DNA from: a virus
Taxonomy: Duplodnaviria; Caudoviricetes
DNA: 64,000 bases
IMG/VR virus record: IMGVR_UViG_2556921664_000001
Coordinates: 1 to 64,000 of that record
Direction: 5' to 3' (one strand)
Within the stretch, counting starts at the first letter, position 1. Each line of letters begins with the position of its first letter. Shown one piece after another: positions 3,010 to 25,520 of this stretch. Below the pieces are notes generated by a model. It saw nothing but the letters and a program-made list of their open reading frames with translations. It ran no database searches and had not been told where the DNA came from. The position numbers and the translations under genes are program-made.

Positions 3010-4878
3010 TTACATTGAAGCCACAAGAGCATTCAATTCTTCAGCTATTTTCTTACGATCAGGTAACTGCCCAATTAATGGATTTGTTACCTGATTTCCT
3101 TCTGCCTCTATATCTTCACGAGTTATATCTGATAGTGTTCTACTACGCTTTTCACGGTCTTTCATACTTACACCTATAGACCTAACCTCAGCATCGTAGA
3201 TATCAATATACTTAACACCTTTATCTGATGTTACGTCTTTCGTATCCGGTATAACCAATGGATCATCTAAAAAGAAGAACATTATTTTCTTACCCTTGCG
3301 TTCCTTTGTTATTCCACGAAACCTGAAACTATATGATTTCTTCCATCCCATATTTTCATATACAATAGACGAAAACACCCTTGAAGCCATTGTTCCGATT
3401 ATTTTTCCATCCTCATGCTGCCATATTATTGATGTACTACTACTTTCCGCTCCTTCCCTGACAATAAGCATCTGTAAAAGCGGATTATATCCTATTTCTA
3501 TGTATTTGCAGTTATCTAACCTATCATGGCAAGTCTTGTTAAACTTAATGTTTTTAGTGCTCATCGTCAGAGTTGGAGTACGGCAGGTAATAAAGCCCGC
3601 GCCATAAGGAACCTGATAACCATGGAAATCTATTCTGGAAACCTTGCTATGCTCAAATCCGGCTATTATACCATTATTCTCCATAACAGAATCTAATTCA
3701 TCCACGCCATATACGTCTTTACATATAGAGTTGAGGACATCTCTGTTAATCCCTTTCCATGAGGGATTAATGGAAATAAAGCCCTTCAACGCTCCTTTAG
3801 GAATAATCTTGATATCTGTAACTCCATTTCTCGTAGAACCTATGCTGCTGCAAACCAATGCGGCAGCTTTTGCTATTTCAGGACTTACAATAGCTTCATG
3901 ATGATTTTCAACGTAAGCAGAGCACCGTTCTCCGTCATTTGCTTTGTTAATACCAAGTTTATAGTCCGTTACAATAGTTTTTCTGGCCTCCAGGTCTCCC
4001 CATCTTCGCTCATTAAACAATACCGCTCTTACCATATTGGAATTCCATGTTGTTTTCCCCTGTAAGGTAGGCCGGTTCTTTTGGGTAAGGAACTCTGCAA
4101 TAGCTGATGAACCCATGCCCAAGACATAAGCAAGGAATATGAATTTTACAGTTTTTGCTTCCTCCGGCTCTATGTTCAGCTTGCCATCTTTTGTATGCCG
4201 ATACCCCAACAAATCTGCCACGGGATATTGTCCTGTCATAATTCTTTGATCATAAGACAAAATCATGCGTCTGCTTTTATTGGCTGACTCCCAATCTGCA
4301 AGCAGGGCATGTATTCCCAGTGCCTGATCACCATCCGGATTAAGGGTATATATATTTTCAGTTTCAAAGTACACTCCAACGGGATGGGATGGATTAAATG
4401 ACTTTAATCTAGCCACCTGGTCAAGGCAATCAGATATGTTTCTGGCAAACCTTGATACGCTGGCACAGATTATCATGTCCATCTCCTGATTTTTTGCATC
4501 TGTAAGCATCTGCCTAAATGCGTCCCTATGCCGTATAGAGGTCCCGGATTTCCCCTCATCACTATAGATATTCTGTAATTTCCAGTTCGGATTTTCTGCT
4601 ATCTTTTTTTCATAGTACAGAGTCTGGTTTTCTATTGAAGAAACCTGTTCCTCACTTGATGTACTTACTCTTGCGTAAACTGCTACTCTTTTGGGTTCAT
4701 CATCATCAATACTAGGGGCCGGCTTTGCAGGTCTGAAATTCTTGCGTGCCTCTTCGTAATTTCGACCAGCTTCCTGTATCCTGTTCCGGATATCAGTCTT
4801 ACGTTGTTCCTGCCCCACATGGCGTTCCTGCCAATTAGTATTTGTTTTATCCTCAGACATATATACACCCGCTATCAT
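3010..4878 (-). CDS. Large serine recombinase with C-terminal extension (622 aa)
   Basis: VAVYARVST catalytic Ser motif, SRFARN, recombinase domain LGY...EPEEAKTV. Confidence 0.92.
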   Translation of the reverse strand: MIAGVYMSEDKTNTNWQERHVGQEQRKTDIRNRIQEAGRNYEEARKNFRPAKPAPSIDDDEPKRVAVYARVSTSSEEQVSSIENQTLYYEKKIAENPNWKLQNIYSDEGKSGTSIRHRDAFRQMLTDAKNQEMDMIICASVSRFARNISDCLDQVARLKSFNPSHPVGVYFETENIYTLNPDGDQALGIHALLADWESANKSRRMILSYDQRIMTGQYPVADLLGYRHTKDGKLNIEPEEAKTVKFIFLAYVLGMGSSAIAEFLTQKNRPTLQGKTTWNSNMVRAVLFNERRWGDLEARKTIVTDYKLGINKANDGERCSAYVENHHEAIVSPEIAKAAALVCSSIGSTRNGVTDIKIIPKGALKGFISINPSWKGINRDVLNSICKDVYGVDELDSVMENNGIIAGFEHSKVSRIDFHGYQVPYGAGFITCRTPTLTMSTKNIKFNKTCHDRLDNCKYIEIGYNPLLQMLIVREGAESSSTSIIWQHEDGKIIGTMASRVFSSIVYENMGWKKSYSFRFRGITKERKGKKIMFFFLDDPLVIPDTKDVTSDKGVKYIDIYDAEVRSIGVSMKDREKRSRTLSDITREDIEAEGNQVTNPLIGQLPDRKKIAEELNALVASM

Positions 4879-6985: not shown

Positions 6986-8545
6986 CTAAATTTCAATTTC
7001 TACCATTTGCCCATGTTTAAAAACAATCTCTATCTTGTCTTCATAAATAATAATGTCTCTAATAAGTTTTCTTGTTAAACTGTCATCATATTCCTTAATT
7101 CCATCAGATTGGCTATCAAGAAAATCCCTGATCCAAGAAAGCAGCTCCCCTTCCTGCTTACAGTCCACATCCGTTTTAATCATCCTGCTACGCTCTTCTT
7201 TCAGATTATCAATTTTCTCCAATAAAGCACCACAAGCATTACCGCTCTTTACTGCATCCACGACCTGCTGCTCCAAATCTTTGATTCGCAGGTCCAGGGT
7301 GCCTGTCAAACTGTTTCCCTTGGTACCTACTACCTTCAAGATATTTGCCTTAACCGATTCCATAATGTCCTGTCTTTTTTCAATAAGGCTATTTATTGCC
7401 TTAACCACTGCGTCCTCTACGATTCTATTATCAATACTTTTAAGGTCGCATACGTCTACACCGTTATCCATTCTATTGCGGCAACGCCACATAATCTTTT
7501 TCCCACCGATGTACCAATGAACTCGGTTCATTACAGCTCCGCAATTTCCACACTTACATACATTGGAAAGTCCGTGCTTTGCACTATACGATCGTTTCAT
7601 TTTTTTCATTTCAGCACGTCGCTGTATCTCTTCCTGAACCCTTGAAAAAACAGCTCTGCTGATAATTGGCTCGTGATGGTCCTCAATATAATACTGCACT
7701 TCCCGACCATCATTAGGTATTCTGGTCTTATTCAGCACATCAACTGTTATTGTCTTTTGGAGCATGGCATCCCCCACATACTTTTCATTGGTAAGAATCT
7801 GACGAATATTGGAAGTTCCCCACTTTTTTCTTCCAGCCCCATTCTTTATACCATCCCGTTCAAGGCCAGCCTTTATCTGGTCCATGCTACTTCCGTCCAG
7901 ATATTCCCTATAAATCCGTTTTACAATCTCTGCCTGTTCAGGATCTACAACAAGGTTCCCTTCCTCATCTTTGGTATAACCAAGGAACCAATTATGGTTA
8001 ATGGAAATCTTACCTCTTTGATAGCGGAACTTCAGCCCCATTTTTACATTTTTGCTTAAAGACTCACTCTCCTGCTGTGCCAAGGAAGCCATGATGGTTA
8101 TCATGATTTCTCCCTGGCTATCAAAGGTACGGATATTTTCTTTCTCAAACCTTATCTCCACCCCTTTTTCTTTGAGCATTCTAATGTACTTTAGGCAATC
8201 AACGGTGTTTCTGGCAAATCGGCTGATGGATTTTGTGATGATGAGGTCAATATTGCCTGACATGCAGGATTCTATCATCTTATTGAACCCTTCACGCTTT
8301 TTGGTATTTGTACCTGAAATACCATCATCCGTAAATATACCTGCCAGCTCCCACTGGGGCTCTTTGTTAATGAGGTCTGTGTAATATCTGACCTGCTCAT
8401 CGTAGCTTGTTGCCTGTTCCTCAGAATCCGTTGATACACGGCAGTATGCAGCCACTCTTTTCTTTGGCATTTCTTTAAAGGCTATTGGTGGAATATCCCC
8501 ATGCAATGGCCTTGTTGCTGGTATTGTTGTTATTCTTGCCATCAT
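6986..8545 (-). CDS. Large serine recombinase (519 aa) with Zn ribbon and coiled coil
   Basis: VAAYCRVST, SRFARNTVD, CKCGNCG...WRC Zn ribbon. Confidence 0.95.
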   Translation of the reverse strand: MMARITTIPATRPLHGDIPPIAFKEMPKKRVAAYCRVSTDSEEQATSYDEQVRYYTDLINKEPQWELAGIFTDDGISGTNTKKREGFNKMIESCMSGNIDLIITKSISRFARNTVDCLKYIRMLKEKGVEIRFEKENIRTFDSQGEIMITIMASLAQQESESLSKNVKMGLKFRYQRGKISINHNWFLGYTKDEEGNLVVDPEQAEIVKRIYREYLDGSSMDQIKAGLERDGIKNGAGRKKWGTSNIRQILTNEKYVGDAMLQKTITVDVLNKTRIPNDGREVQYYIEDHHEPIISRAVFSRVQEEIQRRAEMKKMKRSYSAKHGLSNVCKCGNCGAVMNRVHWYIGGKKIMWRCRNRMDNGVDVCDLKSIDNRIVEDAVVKAINSLIEKRQDIMESVKANILKVVGTKGNSLTGTLDLRIKDLEQQVVDAVKSGNACGALLEKIDNLKEERSRMIKTDVDCKQEGELLSWIRDFLDSQSDGIKEYDDSLTRKLIRDIIIYEDKIEIVFKHGQMVEIEI

Positions 8546-8994
8546 TACACCTCTTTAATTTGGCTATATAGATATTCTACCCTTCGGAAAGGATCTTCTA
8601 TATCGCATTCTGTTGACTCTAATACAAAATCAATCCCTATGCATGTTTCCCTAACCTTATGCTTCTTATTAAGCCGCCCCAATCTGGCAGCCCTCACATA
8701 TTTTTCCTGTTGGGCCTTGGCAAACACCTCATCAGAAATAAGTCTAGGATATATACCTTCGCCAATATAGGCCCTGTTTGTGAGAATCCTGCCAATACTG
8801 CAATGCCATGAGCTAATGCCAACAGCTTCTCCGACACAGTGCAATCCATATCCTTGAAGATAAAGCTCATACATTCTTATGACCTTGGGGCCATCAACCG
8901 GATCTATTACCAGTTCCCCATTTTTGATGCAGTAACCAAATGGTATGTGTGAAATCATGCTCTCACCAGCCTTTCCCTTAATCTTAGTCCGCAT
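8545..8994 (-). CDS. Short recombinase-domain-only protein (149 aa)
   Basis: HIPFGYCIKNGELVIDPVDG...ILTNRAYIG; no catalytic domain; middle gene of a triple cassette. Confidence 0.8.
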   Translation of the reverse strand: MRTKIKGKAGESMISHIPFGYCIKNGELVIDPVDGPKVIRMYELYLQGYGLHCVGEAVGISSWHCSIGRILTNRAYIGEGIYPRLISDEVFAKAQQEKYVRAARLGRLNKKHKVRETCIGIDFVLESTECDIEDPFRRVEYLYSQIKEV

Positions 8995-10481
8995 TTCAGC
9001 TCAAATATGATTTCCTTTTTGGATAGCACAACTACCCTGTCTACTATTGCTGTAAAAATGTTATCTGAAAACTCTTTCTGTACACCTTTCTTATCACATA
9101 TGCCGATAAGTTCCCTAAGTGCTGTTTTACGGTCCACTTTACTTCTAATGTTTTCACCCACGCGAATCTTATCCCTGGCTTTACTTATTTTTATCAGCTC
9201 TGGTAATATTACCGAACTGCTGAGATTATGTTTTGCCTGCATCTCAAGAAGTAACGCCTCTTGGGAATTCAGTCTATCCAGTTCAGATTCATTGTTCTCG
9301 CAGTGCGGAATCTCAGTGTTACTCAAGTCACTAAGCATTGTTTTTAAAACCCTGTTCTTGATACATATCAGCTTATTTACCATGGTACAGAATGCGTCCT
9401 TCAAGGCTGCCTCTTTTATTGCCTTCATAGAGCACTTTGATTTATCCCTTATGTGCTCCGGGCAGGCCAGCAACGGATACTTAATGTCTCCAGTATGCTG
9501 GATTTTATGTCTGAGTACACTATTACATTCTCCGCAACATACTTTGCCGGAAAAAGCATATCTTTTCTTATACTTGGTAGGGGCTTCTTTTGCCTCTTCC
9601 CGCAGTTCGGCGAGTTTCTGCAGTCTATCAAATACTTCCTGGGAAATAATTGCATCGTGATGCTTCTCACAGTAATATGCATCCACATTATTTTTGTTCT
9701 TGTGGCGTTTCCCGTCACTGCCAATATAGGTGGACTGGAAGATTATATTTCCAGTATAAAAAATGTTGTTCTGTATCCTTTTTACTGTGGATGCGTCCCA
9801 CTTTTTTCCTCTTGGGGATGGTATTGAAAGCTCATTTAACTTTTTTGCAATGGCATAACCTCCCAGTCCATCAAGTCCACATGTAAAGATTTTCTTCACT
9901 ATTTCCGCCTTTTCATTATCCAATTTAATGACACCTTCTTCATATATGTAGCCGTAAGGCGGTGAAACCATCTTGTAAGTTCCATCCTGGAATCGTTTCT
10001 GAATTCCCCACTTTATATTCTCTGATAACGACTTTGATTCATTTTCAGCCAATGCACTTACAACTGACATATAGAGCTCTGCATCCATATCCTTTGTATT
10101 GATATTATCCTGCTCAAATTTTACATATATGCCTTTTACAGCAAGTGTCCTGACTGTTTCAAGACAATCCAATGTATTTCTGGCAAATCTGCTGATTGAC
10201 TTTGTGAGGATAAAATCTATCTTTCCTGCTATGGCATCACTAACCAACTGCTTAAAACCATCACGTCTGTTTATGGAGCGTCCGCTGATACCATCATCAG
10301 AATACACTCCTACAAAGGACCATTCCGGGTGTGCCCTAATGTACTCCTCATAGTGCTTCTTTTGGTTATCCAGGCTGGCCAACTGATCAGCGTCTGAGGT
10401 AGAAACTCTACAGTATGCAGCAACCTTCAGTTTATTCTCAGGTCTTTTATCAATAATTTTTATTGTAGGCATTGGAACCAC
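8955..10481 (-). CDS. Large serine recombinase (508 aa)
   Basis: VAAYCRVST, SRFARNTLD, PPYGY, CGEC...C Zn ribbon. Confidence 0.95.
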   Translation of the reverse strand: MVPMPTIKIIDKRPENKLKVAAYCRVSTSDADQLASLDNQKKHYEEYIRAHPEWSFVGVYSDDGISGRSINRRDGFKQLVSDAIAGKIDFILTKSISRFARNTLDCLETVRTLAVKGIYVKFEQDNINTKDMDAELYMSVVSALAENESKSLSENIKWGIQKRFQDGTYKMVSPPYGYIYEEGVIKLDNEKAEIVKKIFTCGLDGLGGYAIAKKLNELSIPSPRGKKWDASTVKRIQNNIFYTGNIIFQSTYIGSDGKRHKNKNNVDAYYCEKHHDAIISQEVFDRLQKLAELREEAKEAPTKYKKRYAFSGKVCCGECNSVLRHKIQHTGDIKYPLLACPEHIRDKSKCSMKAIKEAALKDAFCTMVNKLICIKNRVLKTMLSDLSNTEIPHCENNESELDRLNSQEALLLEMQAKHNLSSSVILPELIKISKARDKIRVGENIRSKVDRKTALRELIGICDKKGVQKEFSDNIFTAIVDRVVVLSKKEIIFELKCGLRLRERLVRA

Positions 10482-12718: not shown

Positions 12719-13210
12719 TCAAGAAGGAATTACTGCAACTGTCCCATCTTCACTGACTGCGCGACAACAATCCGAATATACTTCAATAAATGCATATCCC
12801 CCATGAAGAGCTATTCCTCTGGCCTTCTCCAATCCATCGGGAAGTGGCTGTCCCGCTTTATAGTGCTCAATAATTCCGCCTATTATGTCCAAAGTATGTA
12901 CTTCATAAGGCTTTCCTAAATAGCATTTGGAAACATACCCAAGCAAAATCCCCGACATTTCCAGTTCCGGGAATTCCAGACTGATTTTATTGATAATCTC
13001 ATCAACTTTACTCTGGTTCATTACATGCCCACCCGCATCAAGCTCATGGATGGCCTCAATATATTGCTTGCTACGTTTTTTGCGGAGCAAGCGATCCAAG
13101 CGAATCTTTTCCGCCTCACTTTGAATACGTTGTGTATTAGGTTGCAGCATTTGATTCAAATTAGTCTCTGACTTGTTCTTTTCTTGGACACGCAACATAG
13201 GCCTCGGCAT
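12719..13210 (-). CDS. Hypothetical protein (163 aa) with CYLGxPYEVH...EHY motif
   Basis: GGAGGGA RBS; last gene of the operon. Confidence 0.75.
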   Translation of the reverse strand: MPRPMLRVQEKNKSETNLNQMLQPNTQRIQSEAEKIRLDRLLRKKRSKQYIEAIHELDAGGHVMNQSKVDEIINKISLEFPELEMSGILLGYVSKCYLGKPYEVHTLDIIGGIIEHYKAGQPLPDGLEKARGIALHGGYAFIEVYSDCCRAVSEDGTVAVIPS

Positions 13211-13262
13211 ATCAATCCCTCCGATGTTTTTTTATTCGGCCGTTTACAAAAGTCTTTTTCAA

Positions 13263-14837
13263 TCATAAAAGCACCTTGCGAGTCTTTGGTCCACTTTGCT
13301 GGGCAATTTTCTCCCCGCCAATAGGTTTGCCGGAAGCTGGCACAGCACGCTCTTTTCCCCACTCGCGAATTGCCTCAATTTTTTCTGGGCTGGTCTGGGA
13401 CAATGGAATTACATTATTAAATGCTGTAATTATATTCTCCGAGGTCAGTGTAAAATTCTCATTTGCAATTGTCCTATATGCCAAATCGCGTACAGTGGAC
13501 TCTAAATCAGCACCAGTGAAGCCATCACTGATTTGAACAATTTTATCTGCAAACTCCCCGCTAAAGTCCATGTCCAAGTATTTTTTCATATAGAGAGCCA
13601 ATATTTCCCTGCGCTCATCAACTGTAGGAAGATCAACAAAGAACAGCTCGTCAAAACGACCACGCCGCAAAAGCTCCGATGGAAGCATAGAAACGTCATT
13701 CGCCGTTGCAACCACAAACACTTGCTTTTTACATTCCTGAAGCCAGAACAGGAACTGCCCTACCATTCTTGTGGATACGCCGCCGTCTCCGGCACCGCCA
13801 GTGGCCCCAGACAGACCTTTTTCAATTTCATCAATCCACAAAATACAAGGAGATACATTCTCCGCAGTAGTCAGAGCATCCTTAAGCTGCTGTTCTGACT
13901 GGCCCACATAGCTTCCCTGTACTGTAGCAAAATCCAATCGATAAAGAGGAAGTCTCCAATTAGCAGATATGGATTTTGCAGATAACGATTTTCCGCACCC
14001 TGGAACCCCCACCAGCAATATGCCTCTTGGTGGTAACAGACCCTTGGCACGCAACATATCTCTTTTTTCAGGCTTCATCAATTCCTTCTTCTCATCCAAC
14101 CAGCTCTGGAGCCCTTGCAATCCGCCCACATCTTTCAAACTGTCATCCACATCGATTTTTTCCAGCCCGGATATATCGGAAAATAAGCGATTTTTTGCAT
14201 ACCTAATTTCATCCATATCAGATTTTAAAATACGTTTGTTTGCAATCAGTGCCGCAATTACGTTTTCTGCCTCGATTTTGCTTACTCCTGCCAACGCAGA
14301 GGCTGCTTCCCGAATATCATTATTGTCCCATTCTATTTGGATTTCACTGCGATAATCGTCAATATACTCCTTAATAATGGAATACATTTCATCCTCTGTA
14401 GGCAAACCGATTTTTACAATCATCCCTTGCCGCTGCAAATGATTCCATACAGCATTGTGGGTCATAACAATCACGACCCCACCTGTTTCATTAGCCAGAT
14501 TTACCAATGCCAGTAATTGCTTTGATTCGCTGTTTTCAGTACTTATATCCGGAACCTCAGTCAACACAATGGTCAAATATTGTCTGCGCTGCATCTGCTC
14601 CGTTATATAATCTATGGCACCATAGAAGGATTTGTCTTCATTGACGACCTTGTCAGTAGTGATATCATAAATTCCCCTAGAGGATGTGTGTACTAAAAAT
14701 GACAGCTGCAGTTCCTCGGCCGTATTCTTGAGGATATCCAGTGTTCGCCCATGTTCTATGGTATGAATTGCAATAAAAGGTATTCTGGCGATAGAATATC
14801 TTTTTAACAGTTCCTTGCTTTTATTGATATCACTCAC
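13263..14837 (-). CDS. Ycf46-like AAA+ ATPase (degenerate N-terminal plus active C-terminal AAA module)
   Basis: [13 protein letters not shown] Walker [10 protein letters not shown] Walker B, ATAN...[19 protein letters not shown]. Confidence 0.9.
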
Positions 14838-14841
14838 AAAA

Positions 14842-15348
14842 CTACACCCCTTTCAAGGAATTTACCTTATTGTTACGCACTATGCTCAGCAACTTTCCGC
14901 TACGATCCCGTTTGGCGGAATCCTCCAATGAATGTTGCATCTTATCCGCCTGTTCTTGAACCAGCTCCTGCAGTTTTTCTCGATGCTCTGCTGGCAATAC
15001 TGGCAAATCGAGAGCCGCAGAAAGAAAACGCATTTCCTTTCTTACAGCCAAAATGGCGCGTACAATGGATGACTCACTCCCCATTGTTCTCCCCATGTCC
15101 TTTTGAAATTTGTCAGTAGCCTCATTCATCCGATGATTCACCGCATCAATCAATCTCTTGGAAAATCGTTCTGCAACACCCGATTGCCATTCCAATTCTC
15201 CATGTTGCATTGCCTCCAGTACATCTGTATCGTTTTCCCCGCCCTTAAAGAGCTCAATCACTGTTACCCATTCAGAATATTGGCGTGGCGCTGGTATCAT
15301 GTCTATCGCTTCCTCCTTACCGGCATTTGCGGCGGAACCAAATCCCAT
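14842..15348 (-). CDS. Hypothetical helical protein (168 aa)
   Basis: Overlaps upstream gene, ends 4 bp before the ATPase. Confidence 0.75.
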   Translation of the reverse strand: MGFGSAANAGKEEAIDMIPAPRQYSEWVTVIELFKGGENDTDVLEAMQHGELEWQSGVAERFSKRLIDAVNHRMNEATDKFQKDMGRTMGSESSIVRAILAVRKEMRFLSAALDLPVLPAEHREKLQELVQEQADKMQHSLEDSAKRDRSGKLLSIVRNNKVNSLKGV

Positions 15349-15515
15349 GAAGGCAAGCCCTGGGCAAATGCGCCCTTTGCCTCTTCGTTGATTTCTGAAC
15401 TGTCTGCCTCGTCAGATGCAAATGCCTGTGGATCAACAGTGGCATACCCTGGCTTCTTTTTTTCAGAGGTGTCGGCTACCCCGTTGATGAAATCAGCCCT
15501 CATCTTGGCATCCAT
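15303..15515 (-). CDS. Small hypothetical protein (70 aa) ending in WDLVPP..PVRRKR
   Basis: GGAGGAGAGG RBS; position within the operon. Confidence 0.65.
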   Translation of the reverse strand: MDAKMRADFINGVADTSEKKKPGYATVDPQAFASDEADSSEINEEAKGAFAQGLPSWDLVPPQMPVRRKR

Positions 15516-15530
15516 AATTTCCTCTCCTCC

Positions 15531-17255
15531 TTATACCCGAATAGTGCGCTTTGCCCCAGCAAGTCTCTTAACATATTGCTCCGGCTTAATCTGTTCCAGA
15601 AAATCCAATACCTTTTGGCTCTCCGAATCCCTATTGGAAAAATCCGCACGGAAGTCGACGACCTCCGCCAAAACAGCTCTAATCATTTGGCTGCCAGTTT
15701 TCACTTTTTTGGCAAATTGTTCCTCAATGTCCGCACGCACTTTTTCCAGTTCTTTCTTGCGTGAAAAATGCTTTAAGATACATCCGAATCCAGCCAATAC
15801 TACCACAACTCCCAATTTCCCGGTTTGGGCCATTATCAGGCCGACAACAATGAGCGCACCACCGCCGTAAAGACAAAATTTGTCAAATAGTGTGAGCACA
15901 TGAGGCGCAAGTGCCTGTTCTTTTTCGGCATCTACTTCCCCTTGGTATTTCGCTAATAATTCAGCCTCATTAGTCCCGTCGACGGTTGTCCCTTGGAAGT
16001 TATCAATTGTAAAAGGAATCTCATGAGGTATTTTCATCCGGTTTTTCGCAACAATATCTGTATAGGCATTGTAAATCCAATCCCTCGACAAAGCTATGGC
16101 AAGTTTTTGGGTTGATGGGCTGGCATGTGAACTTGCGGCATTCATAGCAGCATCAGTCAAAAGCTGGGTAAAATCCTTGCGGGATTCAAACGCTGATTTT
16201 TCCAAAGTCATATTTCTATTTGCACGGTCCTCATCACCATTGAATTTTACAATCAACATATCCAGCTGTTCCTGCCTGCGGAGCGGTAATTCTTCTTCAT
16301 CATAATCTGTCACAAGACTTTTCAATATACTATCCAGTTGTTGCTCAAGTTTCATGCTTGTAGAGGGCTGGGCAAAAATCTGAGAAAAATATTTCAGAAT
16401 TTTTTCGTGCAAACTAGCTCCTTCCAAAATATCTGCCATGACAGGCCACAATGCCGTATAGCGTCTAACATATTGGTAGGAAGACGTGTCGATTGGCGTA
16501 CGTTTTGCAATGATTGCATTGGACCACTGTCTTGTCTGCTGTTCAACAAAACCTGTTCTTTCAGATAAATATGCCAACCATTCGTTCATTTGTCTGGCAA
16601 CAAGTCCCTCCGTGTCCGCCCCGAACAAGCCGTTGGCATAAGCATCAAGTATTATAACAGCTGTGCGCTCAAGAGCTGCTGCATCCTGATTTGCCAAATA
16701 ACGTTGCAACCATTGAATACTTGCTCTTTTACGTGCAGCCCTACGGCATACCAACAGGAAAAATAAGGACGTCTTTGTGTCGCTTCTCCTGATTCCTTCC
16801 TTCAGTGCTCTTTCCGCCAGTTCCGGCTGATCGCTGATCCAGGCCGCCAAAGCAACAAGACAAGGAGCAAGCCAATATCCTGGTGTAGAAAGCATCAATT
16901 CCTCAGTAGCGGTGCTTATTGTTTCCTTTCTTACAATTCCCAAATCGTCCGCCTGTAAAATACCAGTGGCCGTACGACGAACAAGCTCGTAATGCCCAAA
17001 TTGACGTTCCAGTGTCTGCCGAACTTCTATAAGGTCAGTCTTTGCCCGTTGCAGATTATTAGCCAAATGCTGATACTGAATAAACTGTTGCAGGTCGTTT
17101 TTTAAAGTATCAAGGGTATCATCTACATCGCGCATGCGTTCATCCAAGCGACCAATGTCATCATTAATACGTTCCAAATCCCTGCTGATGTCCAGCAAAT
17201 TATCTTCAATTGTGCTAAGATCAGCTTCCTGAATTATCCGTTCACTCACGACCAT
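15531..17255 (-). CDS. Coiled-coil protein with C-terminal transmembrane hairpin (574 aa)
   Basis: N-terminal heptads over ~90 aa; hydrophobic CLYGGGALIVVGLIMA / LGVVVVLAGFGCIL; AAGGGGG RBS. Confidence 0.8.
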   Translation of the reverse strand: MVVSERIIQEADLSTIEDNLLDISRDLERINDDIGRLDERMRDVDDTLDTLKNDLQQFIQYQHLANNLQRAKTDLIEVRQTLERQFGHYELVRRTATGILQADDLGIVRKETISTATEELMLSTPGYWLAPCLVALAAWISDQPELAERALKEGIRRSDTKTSLFFLLVCRRAARKRASIQWLQRYLANQDAAALERTAVIILDAYANGLFGADTEGLVARQMNEWLAYLSERTGFVEQQTRQWSNAIIAKRTPIDTSSYQYVRRYTALWPVMADILEGASLHEKILKYFSQIFAQPSTSMKLEQQLDSILKSLVTDYDEEELPLRRQEQLDMLIVKFNGDEDRANRNMTLEKSAFESRKDFTQLLTDAAMNAASSHASPSTQKLAIALSRDWIYNAYTDIVAKNRMKIPHEIPFTIDNFQGTTVDGTNEAELLAKYQGEVDAEKEQALAPHVLTLFDKFCLYGGGALIVVGLIMAQTGKLGVVVVLAGFGCILKHFSRKKELEKVRADIEEQFAKKVKTGSQMIRAVLAEVVDFRADFSNRDSESQKVLDFLEQIKPEQYVKRLAGAKRTIRV

Positions 17256-17295: not shown

Positions 17296-20118
17296 TCATA
17301 TATTTACAGCTTCACGCAGCTTTTCCCACACTTTAACCATTGCATACGTATCAAGACCACAGTATTTAAGCAAATACCCACGATATTTTTCCAGTTCCTC
17401 TGGAGACATGTCAGCCATAGCTAGAAATGCATTTGATGCTTCAGTGCCATTATGAATACCTTCAAGATTGTGATAATCCAGCGCAGGATCATCCGGAAAT
17501 AGTGCTGGTAACACAAGCTTGATAGAAGAACGTCCCTGCATTTCCTTGACATAATAATGCTCATTATGAAACGGCATCTCAAGGTCTTGGATATGGTCAT
17601 GGATATTCATCAAGTGTTCAGCCAAGTCAGGGAAAAGTTCCGCTAATTCCTTTACACGCCCTTGTTCGAATGATTTATGATATGCCAACGTACAACCATT
17701 CAACGTAATATCCATGCAAAGCTGCTCTGCTATCCCTCTACGTGGGTCTTCTCCAGGATATGCCAGATATTCCTTGTGTTTTAGTTCCCCTCCCTCCTGT
17801 TCAATATAGTGAAGGGAATACTGAAATACTATCTGTGCATAAGGCTTTGCATTATCATATTGTGGTACGGCCATTTGGCAAGATTCGAAATCAAGGAAAT
17901 ACAATGGATAGGATAACCCCACCAAAAATTTTTGAATCTCCTCTTTTTCAATATGCGGTGCCTTTTCAAAAAGCTCGTACTCTATCTGTATTTTCTTCAC
18001 TCCTGCCTTATATAGCTGGTTGAAATCGATTATTCCCTGATGATAATATTGGATTTTTTTCTTCCATTGTGGTGAGTTACCCGCGACATCAAATACATTA
18101 GGTTGTGGCAGGTGTCCGGTACAGTATTTCCAACAGTCGCACATTACACCATCTCTTTTGCAATGTTCATCAATGATATCTGGAGATTCGTCCTTTTGCT
18201 TCATGTACTCAGTAAATTTACCTAAATTAGCCTCCACCTCATCATGCTTGGCCTTTGCTTGTTCTGTAAAATCCACCACTGTGAAAAGATCCTGCAAATC
18301 AAGTTCTCCATGCCGCACATATTTATTGTTCAAATGCATTAAATAGACTCGATTCACCTCAAAACCACACTTTTCCACCACAAAGCACTGGAAAGCTACA
18401 TCATCATAATAATGATCCTTGATTTTCGCGGTACTCTTTACCTCATAAATATCCACTTTTTTCCCGCCAAGATGATGTAATATATCAACGCTACAGAAAA
18501 GATTGTCTACCGCAAAGGACGCCTCTGCAATGTACTCTTGCCCATTCTCCAAAAGTTCATTTGTCCGTGTAACCATGCTACCGAGATTGTTCTTATTAAA
18601 GGGCACAACAACACAACCATCAAATCGCTTTTGAGCCAGTATCCCCACCTCATTGCCAACAGCAATACGTTCTTCAGAGGCCGGCGACTCATCGATAATC
18701 TCAGGCTTATTAGTTTTTAACCACAATGCCTTAGGGCACTGTGTCGCCATTACATACTTCGACTTGGAACAAATCAATGTAGATACCTCTGTAATCATAT
18801 CGCCATATCCCAAATCTTTCATTTTTTGAATGAACTTTAAAAAATTTTTCTTAGTATTAGCTGCACCCCATTCTCTGCAAATAACTACTGTAGTATTATC
18901 TCTCAGTACTATAGGATAATCTGTTAAAAATCTTGATTTATCCTTGTCTGGTACTTCAGAAAGATTCTTTATCACGCCGTATGACCCCTGCAAATCCTTA
19001 GGAAATACTCTGCACAGTCCTTCATAATTAATATCAGGATGTTTTTCAACATAAAGGCCCACAACAGATAATACAATTCTTCCTAATGCGGTTTGTTCAC
19101 CATTAAATAGGTATCTTGAAGTTTTAGATTTGCCAGTTGGTTTATTATCATTATTTTTTTCTTTTTTAAATGATGTGCCATATTTTAGCGGCTTTGGTAG
19201 TTCATCTATGAATGAGCTGCTTACGTTGTTTACCATCGCCAGCTTATTAAATTGTTGCATATTTTCTTGTCCATACCTTGTATAAAACTGCTGACGCACA
19301 TAATTTATTACATCAGGATTTTCACCAATCAGATAATTTGAGTTTCCACTTTTCGGGACAAGGAAATAATTTAACGGGTCACAAAAACGTAGAAAATGTG
19401 CCTTGACAATATTCTTTTCTTCATCAGTCCAAATATCTGGGAGACGTCGTACATGATCTTCATTTTCTATCCAATCCGCCACCACCCCTCTAGGAAATAA
19501 TTTATCACTTAAAGCTTCTGGCAAATAGAAATCATCACTTCTATGGTTATTTTCCTTTAAACTAGCAATATGTGCCAAATACCAACCTTTCCCATTTAAA
19601 ATCCCCGTTTCTCTAGGATGTCCAAGAAATTGATTTTTGTTGGCTATCAACGCTTCTTCACTTTTTTTGCCATTATCATAGTGCATTGGATACATATTAT
19701 CATTTAATAATTTAGCAAATTCCTCTGCTGTGGGAACAATGCCCTTGTGAGCCATATTATAAATCTCATGTACCTCAAAATTGCTGGCAAACACGTAGGA
19801 GCAACCGTCAGCCATAACAGTTTTTGCAGCGCGCCTATTTTTATACGGTCTTAGCCCGCGCTGTTCCCAATTCTTATTATTTCCGCCTTCATATTTTCTT
19901 ATCAAAAATACCGCATCCGACCGGTCAATATACTCAACCAACATTTTGTGCCAAGCAATAGCGTATTCGCTGTCTATTAGTGTAGGTTTAATACATTTCT
20001 CATACAATTCAGTAACGGTTTTTACTTCTTCATATTCTGGTAATGAAATTTCAAAATCAATTATCTTCTTTTCATTATGCCTTGAAAAATAATCTTGAAT
20101 TCCTGTAAAAATTGCCAT
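17296..20118 (-). CDS. DUF2779-family nuclease-like protein with ~450 aa N-terminal extension (940 aa)
   Basis: CSKSKYVMATQCPKALWL, VDIL...YEVKST (PD-(D/E)xK), YFLDFE...FQYSLH, YCGLDT in the C-terminal half. Confidence 0.8.
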   Translation of the reverse strand: MAIFTGIQDYFSRHNEKKIIDFEISLPEYEEVKTVTELYEKCIKPTLIDSEYAIAWHKMLVEYIDRSDAVFLIRKYEGGNNKNWEQRGLRPYKNRRAAKTVMADGCSYVFASNFEVHEIYNMAHKGIVPTAEEFAKLLNDNMYPMHYDNGKKSEEALIANKNQFLGHPRETGILNGKGWYLAHIASLKENNHRSDDFYLPEALSDKLFPRGVVADWIENEDHVRRLPDIWTDEEKNIVKAHFLRFCDPLNYFLVPKSGNSNYLIGENPDVINYVRQQFYTRYGQENMQQFNKLAMVNNVSSSFIDELPKPLKYGTSFKKEKNNDNKPTGKSKTSRYLFNGEQTALGRIVLSVVGLYVEKHPDINYEGLCRVFPKDLQGSYGVIKNLSEVPDKDKSRFLTDYPIVLRDNTTVVICREWGAANTKKNFLKFIQKMKDLGYGDMITEVSTLICSKSKYVMATQCPKALWLKTNKPEIIDESPASEERIAVGNEVGILAQKRFDGCVVVPFNKNNLGSMVTRTNELLENGQEYIAEASFAVDNLFCSVDILHHLGGKKVDIYEVKSTAKIKDHYYDDVAFQCFVVEKCGFEVNRVYLMHLNNKYVRHGELDLQDLFTVVDFTEQAKAKHDEVEANLGKFTEYMKQKDESPDIIDEHCKRDGVMCDCWKYCTGHLPQPNVFDVAGNSPQWKKKIQYYHQGIIDFNQLYKAGVKKIQIEYELFEKAPHIEKEEIQKFLVGLSYPLYFLDFESCQMAVPQYDNAKPYAQIVFQYSLHYIEQEGGELKHKEYLAYPGEDPRRGIAEQLCMDITLNGCTLAYHKSFEQGRVKELAELFPDLAEHLMNIHDHIQDLEMPFHNEHYYVKEMQGRSSIKLVLPALFPDDPALDYHNLEGIHNGTEASNAFLAMADMSPEELEKYRGYLLKYCGLDTYAMVKVWEKLREAVNI

Positions 20119-21023: not shown

Positions 21024-23075
21024 TTATTCTGCATATACATCAATATAAGCCTGCTGATACTCTTTTGGATAGTGAACTTTATAGTACACCATACGATATA
21101 AAAGAGCTGTATAGTCAATGGCCTGGGCTCTGGAAACCAAATATCTGATCTTTTGGCAGGAGTCAATATACCAATCTGGTATATTATGTTCTTTTAGAAT
21201 TGCCACCATATCAGGTTTTATGCCACGTCCCTTGCGTACAGCTTCCATTATTTTAACTGCCGTCATTGGTTCAATTCCCATCCCAATAAGGTATGTCATA
21301 ATATCATCACGTGTAGCTATAACCTCTTTGAAGGTACACACCCCATCCTTAAGCAGAAGTTCGGTATTATTATTCCATGCCCCGGAATCAAATGATGCCA
21401 ATGCAATGATTTTTACAAGCTCATTCATACTGCTTGGCTTTACCATGGACATAATCTGGTAAAACAGCTTGCTTAGTTGAATTCCCATTTGCCCAGATGT
21501 TCCCTTATTCTCTTTCATGACATCACCAAATGATTCTGGCTTCAAGGAACATAAACATGATAGCGTTTCAGCATCGCTAAGGGATATATCTCTAATCCGG
21601 TAATTAGTACTGTCCTCCATTTTTTTCAGAAAATCCATCTCCCTAAGTGGCAGCATATCAAGCTTTATCAGATCCCCTAATAGTGCGCGATAATCAAAAT
21701 AAGTTGTTAACCACTGATCATCAGTATCTTCGGATATATACTGAGTGGGCGTAAAACAATGAACATCCATATCCTGGGGAATCAGCATCAATGCGGCTGG
21801 ATGAACGCCTGTATCTGACGGGATATTTATTATCCCCGGTTTAAAGACGTTATTTTCCCCCAATATTTCCTTTATATATGAACGAAGCATCGGGATCTGC
21901 TGAGCAGAATAACAAATGTCAATATCCGGTATTTTTCTGCCATCAAAGCCAAGAAAAACTGCATAAGACATGTCCCAGCCGTCTTTTATCAGCGGTTCAC
22001 CGCAAATAGGACAATTTTGATCAGGTAAATCGGCTCCAAATACGTATTCATTATCAGTAGCAAATTCACTGTGTTTACATTTTGGGCAGCGCCAATGGGG
22101 CGGAAGAGGATTAATATCCGTAATCCCCAACAGATTTGCAACCAATGAGGAACCTACGGAACCGCGGGAGGTAGTACTATAACCATTCCCATGGGTTTTA
22201 TCTGCAAGCTTCCGGGAAATTAAATACAGCGACGAATAACCATTCCTGGTGATAATTGACAGTTCCTTATCAAGTCTTTCTTTCACCACCGCAGGGAGAT
22301 TTTGACCATATATCCTGTGCGCTGCTTCGTATGAAAGATTTTTTACAGTTTCTTCCGCCTCAGGCAAAACAGGCAGATGGATTCCTTCCGGTATTGGTCT
22401 TAGTCGGTCAATCATATCTGAAATAAGCTGCGGGTTATTGATCACAACATCATAAGCTGTTTTTTCTCCAAGATAACTGAAGGATTTCAACATTTCATCT
22501 GTTGTTTGTAAAACTTCTATACCTTGGTCAGCAGCCACTACGGACTTATTAATTTTTGCCGCTAACTCCACAAGTTTTATATTGGTGTCACACAAATCAT
22601 CATCTGGCTGAATTTCCAAGTAATCATAAAAGGCGGCAATTTCCAAAAGCCTTTCTTCACTTTTATGTGAGGCTATGGCCTGTATAAGCTGACCATCAAG
22701 CCCTGCAGCCCCTACGAGTAATCCTTCACGGTGTTGTTCCAAAATTTCTTTTGATATACTATGAGCCTCGTTTCCTGGCTTGGTATGTAATAATGTAACC
22801 AAGTTATACAGATTTTGAAGACCAATCTTATTTTTGGCCAAAACAATCACGTGATATACAGATAATAAATCTGCATCTTCCGTCGACAATAAAATTTCCA
22901 TGCCGTAGATTATTTTGATGTCAAGATTATCCCCCTCAACAATTTGCATAGCCTCCGGAAACGCCTTTACTGAACAGATATCAGTGATTGCCACAGCTTT
23001 CCGACCTCTCCGGGCGGCTGTACTAATATATTCTTTCACGGACATTTCATTAGCTATTTTACTTGATAATTTCAT
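21024..23075 (-). CDS. Minimal PolC-type (family C) DNA polymerase core
   Basis: AITD, SRGSVGSS, CPKC...CPICG Zn finger, KIPDIDI, KLDML, RDDIMTYL, IMEAVRKG, WYIDSCQKI; 683 aa versus ~1400 aa for PolC. Confidence 0.88.
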   Translation of the reverse strand: MKLSSKIANEMSVKEYISTAARRGRKAVAITDICSVKAFPEAMQIVEGDNLDIKIIYGMEILLSTEDADLLSVYHVIVLAKNKIGLQNLYNLVTLLHTKPGNEAHSISKEILEQHREGLLVGAAGLDGQLIQAIASHKSEERLLEIAAFYDYLEIQPDDDLCDTNIKLVELAAKINKSVVAADQGIEVLQTTDEMLKSFSYLGEKTAYDVVINNPQLISDMIDRLRPIPEGIHLPVLPEAEETVKNLSYEAAHRIYGQNLPAVVKERLDKELSIITRNGYSSLYLISRKLADKTHGNGYSTTSRGSVGSSLVANLLGITDINPLPPHWRCPKCKHSEFATDNEYVFGADLPDQNCPICGEPLIKDGWDMSYAVFLGFDGRKIPDIDICYSAQQIPMLRSYIKEILGENNVFKPGIINIPSDTGVHPAALMLIPQDMDVHCFTPTQYISEDTDDQWLTTYFDYRALLGDLIKLDMLPLREMDFLKKMEDSTNYRIRDISLSDAETLSCLCSLKPESFGDVMKENKGTSGQMGIQLSKLFYQIMSMVKPSSMNELVKIIALASFDSGAWNNNTELLLKDGVCTFKEVIATRDDIMTYLIGMGIEPMTAVKIMEAVRKGRGIKPDMVAILKEHNIPDWYIDSCQKIRYLVSRAQAIDYTALLYRMVYYKVHYPKEYQQAYIDVYAE

Positions 23076-23177: not shown

Positions 23178-24353
23178 TTGACAGAAGGTAACAATCTGAC
23201 AGCTACAGAAAAATTAAGAAAAGCCCGAATCAGAATAATGAACAAACAGCCTTTTTTCGCTTCCCTTATTATGCTCCTTACACCAGTTGAAGATGATTCT
23301 ATAGGAACAGCAGCGACTGATTCAAAAAACCTATTCTATGCTCCTTCTTATATAGAAAAATTGTCTATTGAGGAAGTTATTTTTGTGTATCTGCATGAGA
23401 TTCTCCACTGTGCCTTAGGACATATCTGGAGACAAAAAGATAAGGATCATAGACTTTGGAATATTGCCACTGATTATGCAATTAATGGTATGTTACATAA
23501 CGATATAAAACTAAATCATTTTCTCAAAATGCCACCAAGTCTGCTATATAAAGAAACATATTATGGTATGTCAGCGGAAGAAATATATGATTCCCTTAAG
23601 TCAGATATTGCTAGAGCTTTCGTTAGCGTTAGCGTTGGCAATGGTGATGATGGTGATGATGAGCCTCAAAACCATGTTTTATGGAAAAATGCTGATAAAA
23701 ACGAACGGATAAACTGGCAATACAATACCAAGATTGCAATTAAAAATGCAGAAAGATATGGTAAAGCACCTTCATATCTTACAGAAATAATTAAGCGGTT
23801 AAAACCACCACAAAAGGATTGGCGAACTCTATTGAATGAATTTGTCCAAGAGGAAATAAATGATTTTTCACTTATGCCGCCGGACAACCGTTTTGATGGG
23901 GATTTTTTCATTTTTTCCTTTTCCGATACAACAGAAGTGGTAAAAGACTTGCTGTTCTTTGTTGATACATCTGGTTCCATGCGAATAAATGAATTAGAGG
24001 CTTGTTATTCGGAAATAAACGGTGCCCTCCAGCAATTCAATAGGCAACTACAGGGTAAACTTGTTTTTTTTGATGCAGTTGTCCATGAACCATTATACGA
24101 TTTTGACGACATCAAAGATATCAGATCTGTATGTCCTATAGGCAGGGGCGGTACCTGTTTTTATGCTATATTTGATTTTTTAAAAGAATATAAGAATGCT
24201 CATAATCCCATTGCGGGTGTCATTATTTTAACTGATGGACAATGTGACTACGATGACATCGATGCACCAGATTTTCCTGTTCTTTGGGTATTTACTACCC
24301 ATGACAACAATCCACCCTTTGGCTTATCTACTACCATCGAAGTCAGCCCATAA
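23178..24353 (+). CDS. DUF2201-type zincin metallopeptidase fused to vWA domain
   Basis: LHEILH (HExxH), WNIATDYAIN, FVDTSGSM MIDAS, GRGGT, ILTDG; TTG start with GGAGGT RBS. Confidence 0.9.
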   Translation: MTEGNNLTATEKLRKARIRIMNKQPFFASLIMLLTPVEDDSIGTAATDSKNLFYAPSYIEKLSIEEVIFVYLHEILHCALGHIWRQKDKDHRLWNIATDYAINGMLHNDIKLNHFLKMPPSLLYKETYYGMSAEEIYDSLKSDIARAFVSVSVGNGDDGDDEPQNHVLWKNADKNERINWQYNTKIAIKNAERYGKAPSYLTEIIKRLKPPQKDWRTLLNEFVQEEINDFSLMPPDNRFDGDFFIFSFSDTTEVVKDLLFFVDTSGSMRINELEACYSEINGALQQFNRQLQGKLVFFDAVVHEPLYDFDDIKDIRSVCPIGRGGTCFYAIFDFLKEYKNAHNPIAGVIILTDGQCDYDDIDAPDFPVLWVFTTHDNNPPFGLSTTIEVSP

Positions 24354-24404
24354 CAGTTATCCTAATATGACGCATATTAATTTTGTACGAGGGAGGAACA
24401 TATA

Positions 24405-25520
24405 ATGTCTTATATGGATATGATTAGTAATGAAAATTATTCACAAATTTCCTGTAATAAATTTATCAATATCATGTCTGCCCTGTATTCCGAAGGAGAT
24501 TTTTCCAAACAACCAACCAAAATGTTATGGGGCCAGCCAGGTGTTGGTAAATCCCAGGCAGTACAACAATTTGCCAACATACTGTCAGAAAAAACCGGTA
24601 AAAAAACTAATGTAAAAACTGTTTCCTTACTGCTGATGAATCCTATTGACCTTAGAGGTATTCCAGCCAAATCGAAAAATGAACGGAACGAAGATGTGGC
24701 CAAATGGTTATCCCCGGATATATTCAAATTGGATCCCAGTGATGATGTTATCAATATCTTATTTTTGGACGAAATATCAGCGGCTCCACCATCTGTTCAG
24801 GCTGCGGCATATCAAATATGCCTTGACAAACGCATCGGCGAGCATGTTCTCCCGACCAATACTATAGTAATATGTGCCGGCAACAGGGTTTCAGACAAAG
24901 CTGTGGCATTTAAAATGCCTAAGCCCCTGTCCAATCGTCTTACTCATTTTGAAATAATTGCTGATTTAGATTCATGGCGTTCATGGGCTTACCAACACAA
25001 TATCAATGACTCAATCATTGCGTTTATTACATGGCGACCAGATTACCTTAATAAATTTGACCCCTCAAACGATGATGTGGCTTTTCCTACTCCCCGTTCC
25101 TGGGAATTAGTCAACACTTATATGCAATTTGGCTTTGAGGAAATGTTTGAATGTATAGCTGGAACCGTCGGACTGGCAACAGCCATTGAATTAAAATCAT
25201 TTATTGATCTTTCCGTAACACTACCTACTTTTAGTGATATTATTGCCAACAAAGCCGAATTACCAGCTAATAATGATCCTGCTGTAATGTATGCTATTTC
25301 TTCAATGATTACTTCAAATGTAGTGCAAAATGGCTCTACGCTTAAACTGAAAGAAAAGAATAATCTGTTTAAATATATTGGCTCCTTTAAGCATGATGAA
25401 TACATTCTCCTTACATTGCAAGATATTATAAAAAATTGCCCTGAATTTAATAAATATCTTTTAAAAAACAAAGATACCATCAAATTTATTAAGCAATTTC
25501 GCAATGATTTAACTAATTAA
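24405..25520 (+). CDS. MoxR-like AAA+ ATPase
   Basis: MLWGQPGVGKS, LFLDEISAAPPSVQ, CAGNR, PLSNRLTH, PTPRSWE. Confidence 0.9.
   Translation: MSYMDMISNENYSQISCNKFINIMSALYSEGDFSKQPTKMLWGQPGVGKSQAVQQFANILSEKTGKKTNVKTVSLLLMNPIDLRGIPAKSKNERNEDVAKWLSPDIFKLDPSDDVINILFLDEISAAPPSVQAAAYQICLDKRIGEHVLPTNTIVICAGNRVSDKAVAFKMPKPLSNRLTHFEIIADLDSWRSWAYQHNINDSIIAFITWRPDYLNKFDPSNDDVAFPTPRSWELVNTYMQFGFEEMFECIAGTVGLATAIELKSFIDLSVTLPTFSDIIANKAELPANNDPAVMYAISSMITSNVVQNGSTLKLKEKNNLFKYIGSFKHDEYILLTLQDIIKNCPEFNKYLLKNKDTIKFIKQFRNDLTN

Follow-up and report, generated by a model that had tools for sequence, protein, structure and literature searches.

The window analysed here is the whole 64,000-nucleotide (nt) stretch of the Caudoviricetes record IMGVR_UViG_2556921664_000001, and its region of interest, positions 12719-17255 of the minus strand, holds a cassette of five genes named A to E in the order of transcription. 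They encode a predicted membrane-held helical protein (A), a short peptide (B), a helical protein (C), a motor of the AAA+ family (ATPases associated with diverse cellular activities; D), and a small protein with conserved cysteine and histidine residues (E). The window is prophage DNA, with genes for terminase, portal, major head, and tape-measure proteins at 35-52 kb and for serine recombinases at 3-10.5 kb; the cassette sits in the cargo region towards the recombinase end. The cassette is a widespread, previously undescribed system whose function we infer.

All five minus-strand open reading frames (ORFs) are present in the ORF list and its translations at the positions first noted for them (Table 1). 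They form one operon, as the initial annotation had it, and are tightly packed, with intergenic gaps of 15 nt (A-B), 0 nt (B-C), 4 nt (C-D), and 52 nt (D-E). C had been described as a helical protein of 168 amino acids (aa); it is helical, and its length is corrected by the alignment of 26 homologues, which begin at an internal Met encoded by the ATG at 15300. Because C starts there, its overlap with B vanishes and the B stop codon abuts the C start codon. A ribosome-binding site of good quality precedes A, 40 nt past the stop codon of a DUF2779 gene, and since no convincing terminator was found between the two genes, read-through from upstream is possible. The order of the genes is conserved across species and includes even the small peptide B, which indicates that A to E are genuine genes and not chance ORFs.

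Table 1. Positions of the cassette genes, mapped protein features, and the adjoining nuclease gene in the window
Feature	Position	Strand	Description
Gene A	17255..15531	-	574 aa
Protein A domains			N-terminal helix, aa 14-104; TPR-like helical domain, ~aa 87-226; further helical domain; C-terminal hairpin; C-terminal helix, predicted cytoplasmic (predicted model)
Protein A hydrophobic hairpin, aa 462-497	15765..15872	-	Hydropathy scan; model helices 456-475 and 481-543
Gene B	15515..15303	-	70 aa
Gene C	15300..14842	-	152 aa
Gene D	14837..13263	-	524 aa, GTG start
Protein D Walker A GVPGCGKS, aa 277-284	13986..14009	-	
Protein D Walker B ILWIDE, aa 332-337	13827..13844	-	
Gene E	13210..12719	-	163 aa
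DUF2779 nuclease gene	17296-20118	-	940 aa; C-terminal DUF2779 (6.6e-45), weak Cas4-like signal, ~450 extra N-terminal residues

A synteny survey of the five genes found them to be co-conserved. The species scan, which used one genome per species, gave at least 564 loci, of which the best 80 were looked at, and gene order was counted in the 65 loci with at least 3.2 kb of sequence past A. A, C, and D occur in order in 63 of these 65, and E also lies downstream in 61. Loci of related species are 68-84% identical to the window copy in D, 48-60% in A, 41-66% in C, and 47-65% in E, and the gene order is also kept in relatives at 28-44% identity. A distant relative (L012, G281:C31, 815-5905) carries E upstream of A instead of downstream of D, and its D appears as frames of 417 aa and 157 aa, likely through a frameshift.

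The A family comprises 2637 relatives when counted as 90% clusters and 783 when counted as 50%-identity clusters among 1.8 billion representatives, and nearly all members are ~570 aa long. The hosts of the cassette are Clostridia, oral Streptococcus, Negativicutes, and Erysipelotrichales, with examples in Lachnospiraceae, Oscillospiraceae, Streptococcus mitis, oralis, and sanguinis, Phascolarctobacterium, and Merdibacter; further A-family matches lie on plasmids or replicons of other phyla, in Komagataeibacter, Comamonas, and Fusobacterium. Among 401 genomes drawn evenly from the window's phylum, 3 carry the cassette, so its distribution is sparse and patchy. In Blautia it lies between ilvNC/LysR and leuA, among housekeeping neighbours of which none is defence-related, and one Blautia variant, which an assembly collection lists in 11,037 of its blocks, is thus common in sequenced samples. 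Elsewhere an ABC transporter and a large AAA protein stand beside the cassette.

A tblastn search of phage records with A gave a single match among 50,697, the Streptococcus satellite Javan368, which holds all five genes in order, B being present there as an unannotated 58-aa frame. In oral Streptococcus (L034, L036, L042, L046, and others; ~7286-7783 on the minus strand), a tyrosine integrase fragment of ~165 aa lies ~220 nt upstream of A, and the same fragment is found in Javan368 (L001:8953-9297). The Streptococcus cassette may be an islet of its own that was joined to the satellite record. Taken across species, A to E are inherited together in distant Bacillota and move on prophages, on a satellite-linked islet, and on chromosomal islets. 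The prophage location in the window, the satellite record, and a full-length match of D to the phage family phrog_8638 (4.9e-104) would all suit a function that serves the mobile element, for instance in superinfection exclusion, in the timing of lysis, or in the assembly of virions or satellites. Such a function is very improbable, as most copies lie outside recognisable phages, beside housekeeping or transporter genes or on Proteobacteria plasmids, and A has only its one match among the phage records.

D is the protein of the cassette with the clearest relatives. It matches Pfam AAA (3.8e-28) and AAA_lid_3 (4.6e-4), and in addition to its Walker motifs it carries the sensor-1 N and the sequence RRGRFDE. 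The catalytic motifs are invariant among 24 homologues, which have a mean column identity of 81%, and the protein ends in a conserved tail, KTRKVLL. The C-terminal module of D can be aligned to the D2 ring of VAT/p97 (VAT, PDB 5vc7, at 2e-56; range 2e-56 to 6e-51), while the first ~230 aa have no relatives detectable by sequence and no sequence match in the PDB. D is therefore an intact classic-clade AAA+ motor of the Cdc48/VAT D2 type; the initial annotation had likewise named a classic-clade AAA+ with intact Walker A/B and second region of homology, and the Pfam and VAT matches and the invariant motifs bear this out. Because D retains Walker A/B, sensor-1, and arginine fingers, it is expected to assemble into a substrate-threading hexamer.

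The curated families nearest to D do not include it. D scores 82.3 bits against a cut-off of 510 for NCBIfam IteA (NF042959) and 104 bits against a cut-off of 803 for CDC48 (TIGR01243), and membership of the Cdc48, IetA, Vps4/CdvC, FtsH, or PAN families was rejected, all curated cut-offs being missed by far. Like Cdc48/p97/VAT, D has a module that aligns to the D2 ring and a full set of motifs, but it lacks the double-psi-barrel N domain and instead begins with the region that has no detectable relatives. A, B, and C, its constant partners, have no counterparts among Cdc48 cofactors. PADLOC, when run on the cassette, hits D with the IetA AAA core (4e-32), a likeness to the Ietat system (IetA-IetS) that is confined to aa 255-495. 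The cassette differs from Ietat in the IteA score, in having no IetS-type protease gene, and in its other partners.

Protein A was modelled with AlphaFold at a mean predicted local distance difference test (pLDDT) score of 88.5. The initial annotation had described a coiled coil with a C-terminal transmembrane hairpin, and the hairpin can now be placed: aa 462-497 form the sole hydrophobic segment of A and lie at the tip of a long helical hairpin. The 650-aa metagenome protein P0223 is a natural A-B fusion in which a zinc ribbon and an LPSWDILPP motif are appended to A. Hydropathy, the model helices, and the zinc ribbon that follows the A C-terminus in this fusion suggest that both A termini are cytoplasmic, and the fusion speaks for joint action of A and B at the cytoplasmic face. 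A is thus predicted to be a large cytoplasmic helical, TPR-like protein that is held to the membrane by its C-terminal hydrophobic hairpin.

The A sequence has no match in Pfam or the PDB, a Pfam scan of 55 A homologues gave coiled-coil noise, and nothing was found for A in the BFVD viral fold library. A PADLOC match of A to LeoBC was discarded, as it was repeated in just 4 of the 55 homologues with a best E-value of 1.8e-4; the cassette also differs from Eleos/LeoABC in having no GTPase gene. The top Foldseek rows for A are alpha-pore-forming toxins of the AhlB type, with a probability of 0.98, an E-value of 4e-3, and TM-scores of 0.16-0.28, which are weak, and the comparison with these toxins gives a VIA Z-score of 7.7 over 220 residues, inside the noise range for helical proteins. 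Like the tripartite toxins of the ClyA family (AhlB, SmhB, and MakA), A is a long helical bundle with a hydrophobic hairpin head; it differs from them in these noise-level scores, in having no signal peptide, and in its predicted residence at the cytoplasmic face. The pore-forming role suggested in the initial annotation draws on this weak fold resemblance.

Other fold rows for A are TPR proteins and PspA/Snf7 hairpins at Z 7-9, with PspA/Snf7 over the hairpin at 7.3-7.9, where values below 8 are noise for helical proteins. The alignment to PspA/Snf7 bears on the idea that the cassette serves envelope maintenance, in which a tethered unfoldase would pull out or reshape membrane proteins that are damaged or foreign, in the manner of Msp1/FtsH or of the pairs formed by PspA or transmembrane Snf7 proteins with two-domain AAA+ proteins (Ravi et al. 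2024, PMC11237479). Both those pairs and the cassette combine a membrane-proximal helical protein with an AAA+ protein that has an extra N-terminal domain, which in D lacks detectable relatives and precedes the active AAA module, and some copies of the cassette are chromosomal. The idea is nonetheless improbable: neither the 55 A homologues nor C has a Pfam match to PspA_IM30 or Snf7 at E<=1, a sparse mobile distribution is ill-suited to housekeeping, and the exclusive association with toxins described below would be left unexplained.

B is a short, disordered, adaptor-like protein with conserved ends, namely an N-terminal MDAKxxAxFINxVA motif and a C-terminal GLPxWD/S-x-x-PPQ-x-x-VRRK+ motif. 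In most relatives it contains one to three zinc ribbons and a low-complexity linker with PAF-type repeats; the window B is a minimal form that has neither. C is a conserved helical protein with the motifs TYxEW, WQSGVAERF, and SLEDSAKxDRxGK and a mean column identity of 52% among 26 homologues. It belongs to no family and gave no lead in Atlas, and an annexin-repeat match (E 8e-4 over 45 residues) was set aside as too short to use.

E consists of a disordered basic N-terminus, three to four helices, and a small beta-rich domain, and was modelled at a pLDDT of 72.7. C96, H105, H116, and E143 are invariant in 26 homologues. The Cys/His cluster named in the initial annotation is thus present, with a C-x8-H spacing in place of the C-x7-H first given. 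The cluster could be assigned to neither a peptidase nor a metal site, and E has no solved fold above Z 3.8, no Atlas lead, and no fused forms. A, B, C, and E match neither a solved structure nor, above threshold, any family in Pfam, NCBIfam, or PADLOC, and none of them matches a peptidase family.

The D-E slot of related loci provides the main evidence on function; the window's own D-E gap is just 52 nt, and the toxin observations that follow are from relatives in gut bacteria, toxin-bearing isolates such as Faecalicatena contorta and Lachnospiraceae P6A3 among them. The gap exceeds 600 nt in 19 of 61 loci and is filled by same-strand genes, and 11 of the 19 inserts begin with a large protein of 306-1045 aa. 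The first 150 aa of these proteins have a net charge of -34 to -65 and contain two to four copies of [FY]-[DESN]-D-C ([FY]xDC) ~25-30 residues apart. A coiled-coil centre, KFDxVLSKEKGSxEY..EYN, is shared, and the C-termini are variable, with Pfam matches to WHH/Colicin-DNase and to a papain-fold glutamine deamidase (Gln_amidase) and, by eye, further papain-like, HNH-like, and metallopeptidase-like tips. N- and C-terminal parts are shuffled among loci, and none of these toxins has a signal peptide or a transmembrane segment. The small genes that follow include the SUKH-1 (SMI1_KNR4) and Imm74 immunity families, of which Imm74 usually partners Tox-ARC (PMC3482391). With a shared N-terminal region, variable tips, and adjacent immunity genes, these are bona fide polymorphic toxin-immunity modules. 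The polymorphic-toxin criterion of Zhang et al. (2012) holds in the related loci and not in the window.

Small proteins with a ribosomal L7/L12 C-terminal domain also occur among the toxin and immunity genes (L095:14754-15089 and L109:3567-3872), and the one in L095 has an N-terminal zinc ribbon. In one locus (L037:12255-14617), the place of a toxin is taken by two proteins of the Beta-lactamase2 fold whose N-terminal stretches are hydrophobic; the first of the two has an N-terminal zinc ribbon and PNGGYVPP repeats.

Searches that started from the toxin led back to the cassette. The first toxin alignment was too divergent for a collection scan, and the reverse search therefore used a narrower alignment of the toxin centre alone. 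Against 241 million metagenome records it returned 10 loci, all 10 of which have the toxin directly after D in an A-B-C-D...E operon. The N-terminal half of the toxin matches just 26 clusters in the protein database, and the toxin directly follows D in all four contexts that were fetched. All 14 places reached from the toxin alone are thus in the cassette, and the toxin family occurs only in its D-E slot. On a quick maximum-likelihood tree of A, 12 toxin rows need 12 changes, at least six of which are forced by well-supported branches; this scatter indicates that the toxin link was gained or lost repeatedly and is no single inherited accident.

Toxin loci add a gene pair just upstream of A (L107:239-3875; also L019, L027, L028, L049, L095, and others, ~2.7-3.6 kb upstream). 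The first member is a protein of ~300 aa with an N-terminal zinc ribbon and C-terminal transmembrane helices. The second is a soluble DUF87/HerA-like ATPase of ~900 aa, for which the nearest solved structures are a DUF87-domain protein, a DNA helicase, and archaeal HerA (E 2e-9). The ATPase gene ends within ~12 nt of the A start in four annotated loci and overlaps it in three. The pair is found in 22 of 23 toxin loci versus 6 of 62 others, as counts of loci that are not independent. The family thus has two forms: the five-gene core, and an extended form in which two ATPases and two membrane proteins occur with a toxin and an immunity protein. The window copy is a bare core with neither the toxin nor the HerA-like gene.

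It is hypothesized that the cassette is a membrane-tethered Cdc48/VAT-like unfoldase that passes signal-less clients to or across the membrane, a reading that we favour tentatively and with somewhat less than even confidence. A would serve as the anchor, D as the motor, and B and C as adaptors through which A docks the D hexamer on the inner membrane face. D would grip disordered client segments, unfold the client, strip away any immunity protein bound to it, and pass it on to the membrane or through it. In this role the cassette would form the core of a hand-over or export device in inter-bacterial conflict. B is a candidate client or pseudo-substrate of the core found in the window. As the toxins are signal-less, immunity-protected, and confined to the operon, the simplest reading of the extended form is that the operon handles them, and its task there is most likely toxin export or delivery, a new trafficking mode for polymorphic toxins. 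A more far-reaching proposal makes the cassette the core of a hitherto undescribed Gram-positive protein-export pathway. A Cdc48-like unfoldase would work on a hairpin scaffold, the extended form, with its HerA-like ATPase and zinc-ribbon membrane protein, would recognise [FY]xDC leaders, strip immunity proteins, and export toxins, and toxin-less cores would export other clients. This broader pathway is conceivable but doubtful.

Several points weigh against toxin handling and export by the cassette. About four fifths of cassettes, the window copy included, have no toxin, so toxin handling cannot be the sole role of the core, and no [FY]xDC toxins were found elsewhere in the window's genome. 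Export of any protein from the cell is a proposal. The lone two-helix hairpin of A does not readily suggest a channel. The toxins might act instead as suicide effectors inside the cell, or the D-E gap might be a hot spot of recombination whose cargo came in together with the HerA module. The counted loci are also interrelated, so the counts overstate their independence.

The initial annotation proposed an anti-phage machine. As abortive infection or another form of defence, the motor would remodel A on infection and A would permeabilise the membrane, while in extended loci the motor would free the embedded toxin from its immunity partner, with death of the infected cell as the result. The cassette is prophage cargo beside recombinases, is present in a record filed as a Streptococcus phage satellite, and is sparse and patchy, occurring in those 3 of 401 phylum genomes; the AAA core of D resembles IetA, and A gives a weak AhlB-like pore-forming-toxin fold signal. 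HerA-type ATPases occur in defence systems too, and the HerA-like partner has a DUF87-domain protein, a DNA helicase, and archaeal HerA as its nearest solved structures. Defence is nonetheless unlikely. No PADLOC system matches, the LeoBC hit being limited to its few A homologues; the IteA score is far under the cut-off, with no IetS protease; and the Blautia copy between ilvNC/LysR and leuA stands without defence neighbours. Immunity genes of the SUKH-1 and Imm74 families, together with toxin tips that can be swapped, are characteristic of the polymorphic toxins that bacteria use against one another (PMC3482391). The anti-phage claim finds no direct support, and the toxin-immunity modules in the D-E slot point to another type of conflict.

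The extended form follows a logic like that of type VIIb (LXG) export or PVC loading but has none of the parts that define those systems. Related loci resemble type VIIb secretion and its LXG toxins in having signal-less toxins with a family-specific N-terminal region, variable tips, and immunity genes, and in joining within one operon an ATPase of the FtsK/HerA superfamily, membrane proteins, and small helical partners. They differ in having no LXG/WXG100, EssC, EsaA, or EssB and in their motors, which are a Cdc48-like AAA+ and a HerA-like ATPase; the window itself has none of the toxin-side parts. Pfam found no type VIIb secretion (T7SSb) families in the cassette, in 13 scanned toxin-slot proteins, or in the precomputed annotation of toxin loci. 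Effectors of the contractile injection systems PVC/eCIS carry signal peptides. In PVC/eCIS, as in the toxin loci, a Cdc48-like ATPase is tied to toxins with disordered N-terminal leaders (Zhang et al. 2012, PMC3482391), but genes for a sheath, tube, or baseplate are absent from every locus examined.

The initial annotation placed the operon downstream of a nuclease fusion in prophage cargo; the cargo setting stands, and a link to the nuclease finds no direct support. The DUF2779 gene adjoins A in the window, yet it is found in 0 of 80 related loci, and it was ruled out as a cassette member and is a neighbour. A truncated PolIII-alpha/PHP polymerase gene (683 aa, 21024-23075, minus strand) lies in the same cargo region and is adjoined at 23178-25520 on the plus strand by a divergent DUF2201 metallopeptidase-VWA gene and an AAA_5/MoxR-like ATPase gene. 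At the prophage end, three genes for large serine recombinases lie close together with a short ORF that has a Recombinase domain (3010-4878, 6986-8545, 8545-8994, and 8955-10481, minus strand).

No published description of the cassette was found in the literature on AAA+ proteins with polymorphic toxins, on Ycf46, to which the initial annotation likened the AAA+ operon, or on Gram-positive secretion. The initial annotation had recognised no described system, and this agrees with the PADLOC hit restricted to the IetA AAA core and the sub-threshold IteA score. Four of the five proteins are in no described family, yet the A family is as large as the 783 clusters given above. If the toxin link reflects function, the cassette would represent a new route for antibacterial-toxin delivery in Bacillota, alongside type VII secretion, and would show a Cdc48-like unfoldase put to a new use at the membrane of bacteria. 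Since the cassette is carried on a prophage and in a satellite record, phages could spread a competitive or defensive capacity between strains.

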